A DNA stretch of 64,000 nucleotides from Thermodesulfobacteriota bacterium (GTDB lineage: Bacteria; Desulfobacterota_D; UBA1144; Nemesobacterales; UBA2774): contig OZ244197.1 of NCBI GenBank assembly GCA_965216785.1, positions 2,176,001-2,240,000 on the forward strand. The letters run 5' to 3'. Both the position numbers and the translations under genes were made by a program. Below the pieces are notes generated by a model. It was not told the DNA's origin. It was given only the letters and a program-made list of their open reading frames with translations, and did not search any database. Numbering within the stretch: the stretch's first letter is position 1; each line of letters opens with the position of its first letter. Below are positions 54,072 to 58,381 of this stretch, in pieces.

Positions 54072-54323
54072 GTGGATAATTTTTATATAGCTTTTGCGGT
54101 GTATTTGAATTTGATTTTTGTGGCGGCGAAGATTTGGGACAAGATCGGCTGGTCGTGGTTTTGGGTGATGACGCCGCTGATTGTCCTTACCGTGATCGGC
54201 GCTGTAGCGGCTACGGGGCAGGCCGCAAAGAAGAAAGAGCTTCGGGGAAACCTGGTGCAGAACCTTCAAACGCTGAGGGAGATGGTGGAAAACTCGAAGT
54301 CGAGGAGCGGGGACAAACATTGA
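54072..54323 (+). CDS. phage-type small transmembrane protein
   Basis: LIFVAAKIWDKIGWSWFWVMTPL resembles the phage K...I.WSW.WV..P motif. Confidence 0.65.
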   Translation: MDNFYIAFAVYLNLIFVAAKIWDKIGWSWFWVMTPLIVLTVIGAVAATGQAAKKKELRGNLVQNLQTLREMVENSKSRSGDKH

Positions 54324-54793
54324 TAAAGAGCTCGGGGAGACAGCTCATTTATCAACACATCCAGGAAGCCCTGCTGCATTACTCACGATACAAACGCGGA
54401 GAAGGTGTACCGCACCTGTTGAGAGCCTATCTGGAAACGCTCGAAGAGCAGTCCGTTGTAGCAAACTACGTGCTCGGGCTTAAGCTGCTGGAGCACAAGG
54501 CCGTGACGATGTACCTGGACGGGAAGCGTGTGCGGGTGATACGGAAGGCTGAGGTATTCAAGAAGAATGATGTATCACTTACACAGATACGGGTGTGGAT
54601 TTACGGCGACCGTGAGCAGTTCGGGCTTGTGAACACGATGTTCGGGGTGTTTATGCGCCAGGCCAGTTTTTGCCCGTTCTGTCATGACCAGAAGCGCTGG
54701 GGAGACGGGGGGTATCAGAAGCGTCTTCACGGGAGCGTGTGTCCGCATAGGGAGATGTGGGAGGAGGAGAGGGAGGCTGAGTGTGATGCGTAA
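54320..54793 (+). CDS. hypothetical phage protein with CxxC...H...CxH motif
   Basis: TTG overlaps upstream TGA; FCPFCH...HGSVCPH. Confidence 0.55.
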   Translation: MIKSSGRQLIYQHIQEALLHYSRYKRGEGVPHLLRAYLETLEEQSVVANYVLGLKLLEHKAVTMYLDGKRVRVIRKAEVFKKNDVSLTQIRVWIYGDREQFGLVNTMFGVFMRQASFCPFCHDQKRWGDGGYQKRLHGSVCPHREMWEEEREAECDA

Positions 54794-54837
54794 CCTAGAT
54801 TGCTACAATGTGCATGCAATCTGACAATATGAAATCA

Positions 54838-55008
54838 TTTCTTCTTTTGCATGATCAAAAGAAGCAAAAATCACCGGCTAGGTAGAAATGACGCTAAAAG
54901 TTAATTATTACGGCTAAAGTTCACAATTCTACCCACACCCCGTGTGAGCTTTTTAACGCCGTCCTAATCAACTTTCTTAACGCTATTTCCACATGCCGGG
55001 AAGATTAA
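54838..55008 (+). repeat. ~170-nt structured element, copy C
   Basis: Same conserved blocks as copy B, with different but paired stems. Confidence 0.85.
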
Positions 55009-55036
55009 AGGCTACTACAACAACATAAAACAAAAG

Positions 55037-55696
55037 ATGAAAGAGATCGTTGAAAGGAAGGAGTGGGAGAAGAGGGGGAGTGAGACGGGGAAGGCGTATG
55101 AGGGGTTTCGCGTTTACCGGGACATGGGGCCTGCGAGGAGTTTGTCCGCCGCCGCATCGCATGTCGGCAAGTCACTCAGGCTTTTCAAGAAGTGGTCTAC
55201 CGTGCACGGCTGGGTGAAGAGGGCCGAGGCTTATGATGAGTATATGGAGCACCGCTCCCGGGACGTGGTGGAGCGAAAGCTCGAAGACGTAAACCACGCT
55301 CACCTGGATTTGGCGAAGAGCGCGCGCGAGTCTGTGATGGTGCCGCTGCAGGCTCTCCTCAAGAGGATAGAGAAGATAAACGAGGACGGGAATTTTTCGG
55401 CTGAAGAGTTTGAGAATATCCCGGTGGATAAGCTGATTAATATCGCCCGACCTTATGTGAAGCTTGCGCTCGATGTGATTAAGCTCGAAAGGTTACTGTA
55501 CGGGCTGCCGACCCAGACGATTAAGACAGAGGGGACGATAGGGCACGAGGTGAGCCACGACATCAGGGTCGTGAATGAATTTATCGAATCGCTGCCGGAA
55601 GAGGAGCTGCTGCGGATTGTCAGAGACTCGAAAAAACAAAGCGCTAAAGAAAACGGATCCGCTGAGCAAGTACCTGCTGGGCCGGGCAAAGGATAG
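55037..55696 (+). CDS. terminase small subunit-like protein
   Basis: WE....E..KAYE.F..YRDMGP.RSL...A...GKS.....WS....W..RA.AYD N-terminal HTH; directly upstream of a TerL fragment. Confidence 0.7.
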   Translation: MKEIVERKEWEKRGSETGKAYEGFRVYRDMGPARSLSAAASHVGKSLRLFKKWSTVHGWVKRAEAYDEYMEHRSRDVVERKLEDVNHAHLDLAKSARESVMVPLQALLKRIEKINEDGNFSAEEFENIPVDKLINIARPYVKLALDVIKLERLLYGLPTQTIKTEGTIGHEVSHDIRVVNEFIESLPEEELLRIVRDSKKQSAKENGSAEQVPAGPGKG

Positions 55697-55871
55697 CCTG
55701 CTCACCTACACCGAGCTTACTTACCCGAAATACAGGGCCAACTGGCACCACGAGCTGATAATCGAGCGCCTGGACTCGGTCGCAAAGGGGGATATCCGGA
55801 GGCTGATGATCCTGGTGCCGCCGCGCTACGCTCGCAATGACGACTTTGAAAGATGGGATTCCGGGTCGTAG
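55575..55871 (+). pseudogene. terminase large subunit, N-terminal fragment
   Basis: YPKYRANWHHELI...L..V..G..RRLMILVPPRY (typical Walker A lead-in PPR[HY]GKS), then reads into a REP and stops; start uncertain. Confidence 0.75.
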
Positions 55872-56656: not shown

Positions 56657-56768
56657 AGATTCAGTATCGGAGTCTGGGATGACTGCGTAAGGATGAGATT
56701 GCCGCGCTATGCTCGCAATGACAATTAATTACTAATCCTCCCTAACCCTCCTTTGCGAAAGGAGGGGA
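56657..56768 (+). repeat. REP cluster (degenerate D-like, family A, family C-like)
   Basis: GAGATTGCCGCGCTATGCTCGCAATGACA; CCCTCCTTTGCGAAAGGAGGG. Confidence 0.7.
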
Positions 56769-56858
56769 TAAAAAGGCAACTCTGTGGTTTTGGGGGTGTG
56801 CCGGAGGTTGGTGAATGGACCCCCGGCACGGCGTAATGAAATAACACAACTTGTGTAT

Positions 56859-57172: not shown

Positions 57173-57751
57173 CTAGCTTGCGGGAGGGTTACAAATCTTA
57201 CAGTTATCGTGGTCATGATTATCTACCGAGAATTTTTCGTTAGTATCGAACCGGGCCCCGCAGCACTCTATGAACATTCCCTTTATCATTTCCCTTCCTC
57301 TCTGAACTCTCGACTTCAGCCCCGTGTACGAGAGTCCCATCCGCTCCGCCAAATCCTTTTGCTTAACCCCCTCTATATCGCTCAGTATGAGCGGCTCTCT
57401 ATATTTCTCGGGCAGCCTGTCTATAAATACGTTAAGGCAGTACAGGATGCCGCTTAAATTTTTATCTTCGCCGTTATCTTCTGAATATGAAATGTTCTCA
57501 TCGATCTCAGCGCCTCCCATGTCCTTCTTTCTATAGTAGTCCGTTATAGAATTCCGTACTATCGAGTAAATCCAAGGGGCGAGTTTTTTTTCGTCTTTAA
57601 GTGAGGCGAGGCTCTTGTGGATCTTGATGAATATCTCCTGCGTCAGATCGTCCACATCCTCTGGGCTCCGCACTTTCCCCATCAGATAGGCTCTGATCTT
57701 TTCTGAGAAATCCTCGTATATTCCGTTCATCTCATCTTGCGTCGCTTTCAT
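57173..57751 (-). CDS. sigZ: ECF sigma factor SigZ-type with Cys-rich C-terminus
   Basis: DDLTQEIFIKI, WIYSI.RN.I.DYYRK, LPEKYRE, KSRVQRGR, tail ECC...HDHDNCKIC. Confidence 0.88.
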   Translation of the reverse strand: MKATQDEMNGIYEDFSEKIRAYLMGKVRSPEDVDDLTQEIFIKIHKSLASLKDEKKLAPWIYSIVRNSITDYYRKKDMGGAEIDENISYSEDNGEDKNLSGILYCLNVFIDRLPEKYREPLILSDIEGVKQKDLAERMGLSYTGLKSRVQRGREMIKGMFIECCGARFDTNEKFSVDNHDHDNCKICNPPAS

Positions 57752-57827
57752 CTTTCCTACCTTATATATAAGGGTACACACTATATATATGTATTTTTAT
57801 TATAATGTGTACCCCGTTATTTTAAAC

Positions 57828-57932
57828 TTATCCGCAGCATGTAGAGCTTTCACACTTACACTCACAGCGGCACTCCGCTCCGCCGCAGTTCTCACACTGA
57901 CATTCACACTTTACTTTATTATCTTCACTCAT
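57828..57932 (-). CDS. 34-aa metallothionein-like protein (not in ORF track)
   Basis: GGAGGT RBS; MSEDNKVKCECQCENCGGAECRCECKCESSTCCG, 10 Cys, no aromatic residues. Confidence 0.75.
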   Translation of the reverse strand: MSEDNKVKCECQCENCGGAECRCECKCESSTCCG

Positions 57933-57969
57933 TTCTGACCTCCCTGAATTTTTTTACTTACATATAGAT

Positions 57970-57996
57970 AGACGGGGGGAGGGTGAAAAAGACGCA
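57970..57996 (-). promoter_or_regulatory. putative ECF (SigZ) promoter
   Basis: TGCGTCTTTTT...CGTCTA on the minus strand; CGTC is a typical ECF -10. Confidence 0.5.
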
Positions 57997-58138: not shown

Positions 58139-58300
58139 ATGAAAAGAACATTACTTACTTTAGCTATAGCTCTGGGTCTCGCGTTTGGCAGCTTCGCTAT
58201 TTTCTCATCCGACTCCTTTGCGTGCGGAGCGGGAAAAGATAAAGGCGCGACTACCGAAGATACCACCCAGACAGACTCAAGCAGCTCAACAGAGTCATAA
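58139..58300 (+). CDS. 53-aa secreted microprotein (not in ORF track)
   Basis: GGGAGG RBS; MKRTLLTLAIALGLAFGSFAIFSSDSFA/CGAGKDKGATTEDTTQTDSSSSTES. Confidence 0.65.
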   Translation: MKRTLLTLAIALGLAFGSFAIFSSDSFACGAGKDKGATTEDTTQTDSSSSTES

Positions 58301-58324
58301 GAAGCATCTGCAATACAATTTAGA

Positions 58325-58370
58325 AAAAGGCCCTGGATTAGAACGATTGACTACTCAAGGGCCTTTTTTT
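58325..58370. terminator. bidirectional terminator
   Basis: AAAAGGCCCT...AGGGCCTTTTTTT between convergent genes. Confidence 0.7.
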
Positions 58371-58381
58371 ATATCCTATAG

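Follow-up and report, generated by a model that had tools for sequence, protein, structure and literature searches.

A metallothionein-like peptide gene behind a predicted SigZ promoter, and the largely arsenic-linked genes that follow the same element across phyla

What does an ECF sigma factor with a cysteine-rich tail respond to, and what is the role of a small, unannotated cysteine-rich reading frame placed directly ahead of its gene? The question arises from a 64,000-nt stretch of a Thermodesulfobacteriota genome (hereafter the window), for which an earlier note, made from the letters alone, had described a 34-aa reading frame with a strong ribosome-binding site just 5′ of sigZ and had proposed an autoregulated circuit of metal sensing and metal buffering. 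Reading frame and ribosome-binding site are present as described, and the genes at issue are the following:

57828–57932, minus strand: gene of a metallothionein-like peptide of 34 aa with 10 Cys (open reading frame, conservation, coding-type selection)
57939..57944, minus strand: ribosome-binding site GGGAGG, 6 nt ahead of the peptide ATG; GGAG or GAGG is found at 26/26 homologous peptides
57173–57751, minus strand: sigZ, an ECF sigma factor of the TIGR02959 type, 192 aa, with its ATG at 57751 and sigma2 and sigma4 helices in the model

The cysteines of the peptide follow the pattern CxCxCxxC-x4-CxCxCxC-x4-CC, and histidine and aromatic residues are absent. The very small size, the cysteine content of 29% and the CxC, CxxC and CC motifs are metallothionein traits. 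In a whole-genome census of ATG-started reading frames of 20–80 aa, nested starts counted, the peptide was the sole one among 24,963 to combine 7 or more Cys with a Cys content of 20% or more.

Conservation of the small reading frame upstream of sigZ orthologues, which the circuit would imply, was borne out in related genomes. Sixty-one were searched and 28 carry sigZ, giving 29 loci, at 26 of which a Cys-rich reading frame of 30–44 aa with a ribosome-binding site lies directly 5′ of sigZ. The three loci without the peptide comprise one in which both genes are frameshifted, one on a contig beginning within sigZ, and a distant relative of the same order with the gene order sigZ–element–arsM, where the promoter element described below is found 3′ of sigZ and ahead of arsM. 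Frameshifts in the peptide gene and sigZ alike, as in locus L026 (L026/L246), reflect either decay or an assembly error. Between the three closest peptide genes, 28 of 42 pairwise base differences fall at third codon positions (the pairs are not independent), and every Cys is retained with its codons interchanging between TGT and TGC, a coding type of selection. Across the homologues, conservation is limited to Cys richness and an acidic/basic N terminus: length, spacing and every non-Cys position vary, hydrophobic residues are missing, the Cys count ranges from 6 to 13 and His occurs in 1 of 26 peptides. These 26 peptides together contain 146 CxC, 46 CxxC and 30 CC motifs. Near-identical sigZ–peptide modules are present in Candidatus Dadabacteria and Thermodesulfobacteriota records.

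Gene callers miss these peptides. The 34-aa peptide is absent from approximately 15 billion called proteins, among which the neighbouring SigZ is present, and a homologue search with it returned six proteins, all of the same family and either unnamed or labelled 'hypothetical'. Profile searches of Pfam, NCBIfam and PHROG yielded zero family matches for the peptide, and a PDB search with the peptide family profile gave none. One of 16 family members matched PF12749 weakly and below the cut-off, and the best named match in the Atlas was Metallothio_5 at 0.77, which we take as a lead only. The peptide is outside every named metallothionein family in Pfam and the PDB, and from its composition we predict that it is likely a metallothionein-type sponge. 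Unannotated Cys-rich peptides of 26–55 aa are also encoded beside Bacteroidota sigZ genes (L052, L068, L069, L075, L268–L285), located either 3′ of sigZ, with two separate promoters, or 5′ in a window-like order, in 13 of the 30 top-ranking sigZ loci that were sampled. A further Cys-rich peptide near sigZ, 63–65 aa long (L273, L283), resembles the Cys-rich N-terminal extensions of some ArsM proteins whose genes follow the promoter element (L031, L072, L405), and this module is possibly an arsenic chaperone or sponge.

Upstream of the peptide gene, an ECF-like promoter of the form CGTCT-N15-CGTCT had been proposed. It is present at 57970–57995, within two predicted elements:

57987..57996, minus strand: predicted SigZ −35, TGCGTC plus T-tract; ahead of 26/26 peptide genes in relatives, with the top score in the genome
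57970..57974, minus strand: predicted SigZ −10, CGTCT, 16 nt past GCGTC

The conserved element reads TGCGTC(T/C)TTT-N11-13-CGTCT. All 26 peptide genes are preceded by GC(G/A)TC-TTTT and CGTCT, 15–17 nt apart and 32–78 nt ahead of the ATG, and over 68 sites outside the family the −10 positions G, T and C are nearly invariant. With a weight matrix trained on 68 sites, all from outside the sigZ–peptide family of the window, the window promoter scores 31.3 bits and is the best site of the host genome; the runner-up reaches 22.2 bits, and no site of the reversed genome exceeds 22.6. Of 32 family genomes, 28 contain the strict pattern, in most cases as a single copy; its reversal gave 2 matches in the 61 genomes. 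Weight-matrix and pattern scans of the host genome for second CGTCT-type sites found no further SigZ target above background, and the host copA and csoR–ATPase loci are without the element. In this genome the sole confident SigZ target would be the peptide gene, plus sigZ through partial read-through.

Whether the element belongs to SigZ can be judged from its distribution. An all-species genome scan with a pattern derived solely from the window family matched at least 125 stretches, from which 80 loci on 76 contigs of many phyla were fetched. On 62 of the 76 distinct contigs a SigZ-profile match lies within 2 kb of the element (57 of them at 100 bits or more), where approximately 1.6% would be expected from the density of any sigma match in the host genome. 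Loci picked by sigZ alone carry the element, at up to two mismatches, in 26/30 cases in Bacteroidota, 21/23 in Bacillota and 16/30 in Pseudomonadota, which gives 63 of 83 loci with a nearby element as compared with 2 of 83 in the reversed control; for these sets, 251 Bacteroidota genomes gave 40 matches, of which the best 30 were used, 401 Bacillota genomes gave 23, which were all used, and 401 Pseudomonadota genomes gave 36, again reduced to the best 30; 3 of the 83 loci are centre genomes originally found via the motif. Fourteen of the 30 Pseudomonadota loci have zero copies within 1.5 kb at two mismatches. The strict form is found in 9 of 38 sigZ-positive Bacteroidota genomes versus 5 of 213 sigZ-negative ones, and so fails to detect most of the sigZ-positive genomes. 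A flanking-window test of 44 other ECF genes revealed the element at none. On a Priestia megaterium plasmid, where sigZ is divergent from an aldo/keto reductase gene (the Bacillus arrangement), the sole element in 8.5 kb (L361:3920–3950, minus strand) lies just ahead of the reductase gene and faces it; we take yrpG of B. subtilis to be the same reductase. The promoter behaves as one read by SigZ, as the circuit had supposed, and its tracking of sigZ across phyla makes this assignment very likely.

Many of the genes behind the element belong to arsenic detoxification. Among the 83 pattern matches listed from the all-species scan, the first gene is sigZ in 19, arsM in 18, a Cys peptide gene in 12, arsI/cadI in 7 and the gene of a Tenacibaculum-type protein in 6, followed by GST, arsP, DUF2703 and PatB with 2 each, three singles and 10 others. 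Behind the 74 copies in the sigZ-picked sets, it is DUF2703 in 18, a Cys peptide in 12, sigZ in 9, arsM and arsI in 7 each, arsP and GST in 5 each, PhzF in 2 and other genes in 9. Judged by NCBIfam names, cadmium, copper and zinc members also occur in the ArsI/CadI and ArsP families. Labelling of 126 distinct sigZ loci (mixed selections) gave 59 arsenic-linked, 48 peptide-linked, 1 with both and 18 with neither, the two kinds of partner being almost mutually exclusive; arsM, arsI, arsP, acr3, arsC, arsH or arsJ is present at 55 of the 126. Peptide-linked and ars-linked SigZs are interleaved in a quick unrooted tree of 123 SigZ proteins, from which three rows with broken tails were excluded. 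The peptide label there takes four changes, each forced by well-supported branches: the SigZ group of the window joins four Bacteroidota loci of identical gene order (support 91), and a second peptide-linked group has a 98-supported branch in common with arsM-linked SigZs. Taken together, the first-gene counts and partner labels indicate that the peptide occupies the slot filled elsewhere by arsenic enzymes, and that some members of the family are truly autoregulated.

Several observations accompany these counts. DUF2703 is first behind 17 of 22 Bacillota element copies (L338–L360), a lead for an uncharacterised domain. At four loci of genus g5 (L303–L305, L308) the element is located 57–58 nt ahead of genes for a CopA-type ATPase and a cupredoxin-like protein. 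The second sigZ copy of genome G002 (L029) clusters with another genus in the tree. Within the family, arsM-like genes are present in 30 of 33 genomes, all below the family cut-off, and in the host genome an ArsR gene adjoins the arsM-like gene. A variant with CATCT as −10 precedes this arsR once in the host (G000:C1:2946706, plus strand); in the form CATCTAA with −35 TGCATC it stands ahead of arsR/arsM in 10/10 genus-g2 loci and is retained where arsR is missing (L372–L395), and in genera g3 and g4 it has a GAAAC-like −35. Because the host copy scores 14.4 bits, which is background level, carries A where 68/68 training sites have G, and has counterparts with a GAAAC −35 in other genera, the variant perhaps belongs to another sigma factor, and as a tie of SigZ to arsenic within the family it is a hint only.

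The sigma factor itself was assigned to SigZ in the earlier note, and the assignment stands: it passes TIGR02959 narrowly, with 170.3 bits at a cut-off of 168.65, scores 189.3 against NF007215, below the cut-off of 212, and consists of the sigma2 and sigma4 domains only (PF04542 and PF08281). From SigZ membership follows its placement in ECF238. Its candidate sensor residues are:

57437..57439, minus strand: Cys105, predicted sensor ligand; Cys in 120/141 aligned SigZ proteins
57260..57265, minus strand: Cys163–Cys164, predicted sensor ligands; Cys in 135/141 and 128/141, with CC or CxC in 132/141
57191..57202, minus strand: tail CxxC (Cys184, Cys187), putative accessory ligands; invariant in 26 family members

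The tail had been read as CC...HDHDNCKIC. Its cysteines form a conserved C-terminal extension, CC-x19-CxxC, of the kind (about 20 aa, Cys-rich) that marks ECF238, whereas the HDH and the other tail histidines are not conserved. The tail CxxC is absent from B. subtilis and Priestia SigZ, both of which retain just the three core cysteines; across the 141 SigZ proteins additional tail cysteines are usual, at variable spacing. In a structural model (pLDDT 75), Cys105 is located on the helix preceding sigma4, the final helix has Cys163 at its end, and by analogy with the sigma4 fold the Cys105 helix would pack against that of Cys163/164. A fold search with this model returned generic ECF matches only. 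The reported absence of an evident anti-sigma gene agrees with our survey, in which no co-oriented membrane gene and no co-transcribed anti-sigma candidate was seen at sigZ; a divergent 53-aa signal-peptide reading frame is present in 10 of 29 loci. The copy in the window, at 58139–58300 on the plus strand, has a ribosome-binding site and a signal-peptide-like N terminus, is divergent from the peptide gene and has no family match; a hairpin lies by it at 58313–58379.

Between the peptide gene and sigZ are 76 nt, in which two further features can be placed:

57771..57815, minus strand: RNA stem-loop without a U-tract (z −4.0; compensatory and G-U changes)
57799..57826, minus strand: TTTAAA-16-TATAAT, weakly supported as a possible basal promoter of sigma-70 type ahead of sigZ

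An inverted repeat separating the two genes had been noticed, and it is found at 57772–57814, where it folds into a stem of 15–18 pairs. Of the 26 spacers, 20 contain the stem, and the loop measures 6–194 nt. In an alignment of 18 stems, 81% of the cells pair, 37 double changes are seen, G-U pairs are common and the signal exceeds all 500 shuffles; the statistics lean favourable because the 18 sequences were selected for stem presence, with 8 of the 26 left out (5 stemless, 2 long-stem and 1 near-duplicate). By these patterns the repeat behaves as an RNA hairpin, which is likely either a stabiliser or a partial terminator of a short peptide mRNA. A role as repressor operator was considered and ruled out by the compensatory arm changes with G-U pairs and by the range of loop lengths. 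A promoter/terminator scan detected no intrinsic terminator at the locus, and Rfam gave no credible match. Five Bacteroidota loci share the gene order of the window; three likewise have a hairpin, and in two the genes abut. In one relative (L007), approximately 170 nt are inserted in the hairpin loop with both arms retained.

The hairpin bears on the loop that had been proposed, in which SigZ would drive its own gene. Autoregulation holds for the part of the family in which sigZ is first behind the element; here, in contrast, a TATAAT-like sequence in the spacer suggests a separate basal promoter for sigZ, and because the repeat behaves as an RNA hairpin, autoregulation via read-through is uncertain and only possible. 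The one sequencing run labelled metatranscriptomic is probably DNA and contains contigs of a related strain, so it speaks neither for nor against expression. The TATAAT is retained ahead of sigZ in three stemless loci; sigma-70 sites in the region are at chance level (5 found, 3.4 expected).

How might these parts work together? A CorE-like SigZ combined with a chelating peptide, with an ion as the signal, seems to us the probable architecture, and within it an arsenite-type ion takes the larger share of our confidence and copper a distinctly smaller one. To the specific proposal that SigZ senses a soft ion with a preference for thiols, arsenite (or antimonite) being the most likely one, and drives the peptide sponge from the element, we assign roughly an even chance. 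SigZ would be made at a basal level and stay inactive pending the ion, which would load a three-thiol site (Cys105, Cys163 and Cys164, aided by the tail CxxC) and thereby activate SigZ, as in CorE. Active SigZ would then yield a short peptide mRNA, protected by the hairpin and more abundant than that of sigZ, and the peptide, whose 10 Cys would suffice for about three trigonal As(III), would chelate the ion, so that the signal would drop and a negative loop close. Cu, Zn and Cd had been put forward for binding tests. Across phyla the element's targets are mostly arsenic-detoxification genes, and copA follows the element at only some loci of a single related genus, which makes arsenite, or a soft ion like it, a better candidate than Zn or Cd. 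A site of three thiols would likewise fit trigonal As(III) or Cu(I) more readily than Zn or Cd with their four-fold coordination. The As(III) site of AfArsR, CCx5C, is trigonal (PMC11672702). In the host, arsenic sensing is perhaps covered already, given the ArsR gene beside the arsM-like gene. More tentatively, and with somewhat less confidence than for the proposal above, we suggest that arsenite sensing is a widespread property of SigZ (ECF24/ECF238) and that its regulon is of an activator type independent of ArsR; from the element it would drive arsM, arsI, arsP and DUF2703 in many phyla and, in several lineages including this one, His-free arsenite-sequestering peptides.

The same circuit could instead answer to copper (or silver) in this lineage, with SigZ as a CorE-like sensor and the peptide as a copper-thionein. 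The presence of the element at 4 of the 6 copA genes of a related genus (g5) makes copper a real rival, although we consider it unlikely. The ATPase there is of the CopA type (P1B, with CxxC, CPC, YN and MxxSS) and is the only second exact target within the family, at 4/6 genus-g5 loci and 0/24 others; counted over the family, copA is without the element at 26 of 30 loci, the host genome included, and elsewhere no copper ATPase is first behind any of the 74 sigZ-picked or 83 pattern-derived copies. His-free peptides dominated by CxC would befit copper, three thiols suit Cu(I) too, CsoR-family genes occur in just 10 of 33 family genomes, and the arsM-like gene of the host is accompanied by an ArsR. 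Copper activates CorE, which controls copA and copB (PMC3107203), but the CxC of the CorE linker is missing from SigZ.

The remaining explanations are all improbable in our estimation, in descending order. General thiol stress (oxidants and electrophiles, Cd and Hg included) might be sensed, with the peptide as a thiol buffer and not a store for a single ion; GST, aldo/keto reductase, PatB C-S lyase, PhzF and MATE proteins among the targets speak for this, yet typical redox genes were not found among first targets, and the arsenic-specific enzymes arsM and arsI, with acr3, arsH, arsC and arsJ as neighbours, predominate. A slightly smaller chance is left for direct contact of the peptide with SigZ, whether in the role of a small anti-sigma factor or of an ion-delivering chaperone. 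Its gene is directly 5′ of the sigma gene, a frequent anti-sigma position, and abuts it in two Bacteroidota loci; on the other side, 77 of 126 SigZ loci are without a peptide, the peptides lack hydrophobic residues, are fixed in neither length nor spacing nor any non-Cys position, and take the arsM/arsI slot behind the promoter, and ECF238 is described as anti-sigma-free (PMC7826278). We regard it as very improbable that sigZ is a passenger and that the element belongs to another sigma factor or serves a different regulator as a direct-repeat site. The two halves do form a CGTCT direct repeat 20–21 nt apart, and the host genome has ten sigma-profile matches besides SigZ. CGTC-type −10 elements are, moreover, common to many ECF groups. 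The element nevertheless tracks sigZ and not other ECF genes (0/44), separates sigZ-positive from sigZ-negative Bacteroidota even in its strict form (9/38 versus 5/213), faces the divergent aldo/keto reductase gene in the Bacillus-type locus and is upstream of no other sigma gene of the host. The reading of SigZ as an ion sensor, most likely for arsenite, that drives the peptide is the one we retain.

Among the closest known systems is CorE/CorE2 of Myxococcus xanthus (former ECF44), an ECF factor that, like SigZ, has a Cys-rich C-terminal extension; it works without an anti-sigma factor, and its activity is metal-dependent (PMC8999054, PMC3107203). A direct, CorE-like regulation by metal had been suggested for the window sigma, and the likeness extends to the Cys tail and to the lack of a visible anti-sigma gene; the CxC in the sigma2–sigma4 linker that defines the CorE-like group (PMC8999054), and with it ECF44, is absent, SigZ having the single Cys105 and falling in a different clade. 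At other loci the predicted targets of SigZ are for the most part arsenic genes or Cys peptides, whereas those of CorE are copper/cation efflux genes. The system works like CorE plus a metallothionein, and its sigma is SigZ, not a CorE/ECF44 member. Casas-Pastor et al. 2021 group SigZ with CorE2 in ECF238 and suggest metal binding by the Cys tail; in the same text the promoter motifs of ECF238 are called not conserved, its conserved neighbours are confined to one subgroup, and the activation signal of SigZ is termed a 'long-standing enigma' (PMC7826278). B. subtilis SigZ (TIGR02959; former ECF24, now ECF238), whose sequence we took from a row of a supplementary table of Rhodius 2013, has the three core cysteines in common with the window SigZ and, like it, no anti-sigma candidate in view; in the Bacillus-type locus of Priestia the same element is ahead of a divergent aldo/keto reductase gene, and in the window it is ahead of a co-directional Cys peptide gene. 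The B. subtilis gene is described as monocistronic and not autoregulated, with a function 'not yet determined' and yrpG as the only suggested target of its own (PMC4105308).

On the side of the peptide, SmtA/BmtA, Pseudomonas MT and MymT are similarly small, with approximately 30% Cys in CxC, CxxC and CC motifs, but the window peptide has no His, is shorter and has no Pfam or PDB match; SmtA is under the repressor SmtB (PMC7387436), whereas the window peptide is predicted to be sigma-controlled. ArsR repressors carrying CCx5C at the C terminus (AfArsR) offer a parallel to the sensor site, as both they and SigZ have a vicinal CC and a third Cys and are found with arsM, arsI, arsP and acr3-type genes under their (for SigZ, predicted) control (PMC11672702); SigZ differs in its unrelated fold and as a would-be activator that supplies promoter specificity itself. 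In the open literature we found no report of the SigZ promoter TGCGTC...CGTCT, of a SigZ arsenic regulon or of the Cys peptides. The available portion of the CorE2 paper mentions neither arsenic nor SigZ, Todor et al. 2020 do not mention the SigZ group in their main text, and those ECF24 entries of the Rhodius 2013 supplements that we covered are sigma-library rows and table headers.

The promoter, the target list and the three candidate sensor cysteines make the signal of SigZ directly testable in B. subtilis. If arsenite is that signal, arsM in many environmental bacteria would be sigma-activated and not ArsR-released, which bears on arsenic cycling, and the peptides would add His-free members to the bacterial metallothioneins, useful as small chelators or in biosensors. 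Elsewhere in the window, short palindromic repeats near 56690–56770 match several other contigs, and a prophage remnant at 54072–55871 comprises a terminase small subunit (phrog_6299), a short fragment of a terminase large subunit and a phrog_1374 reading frame.
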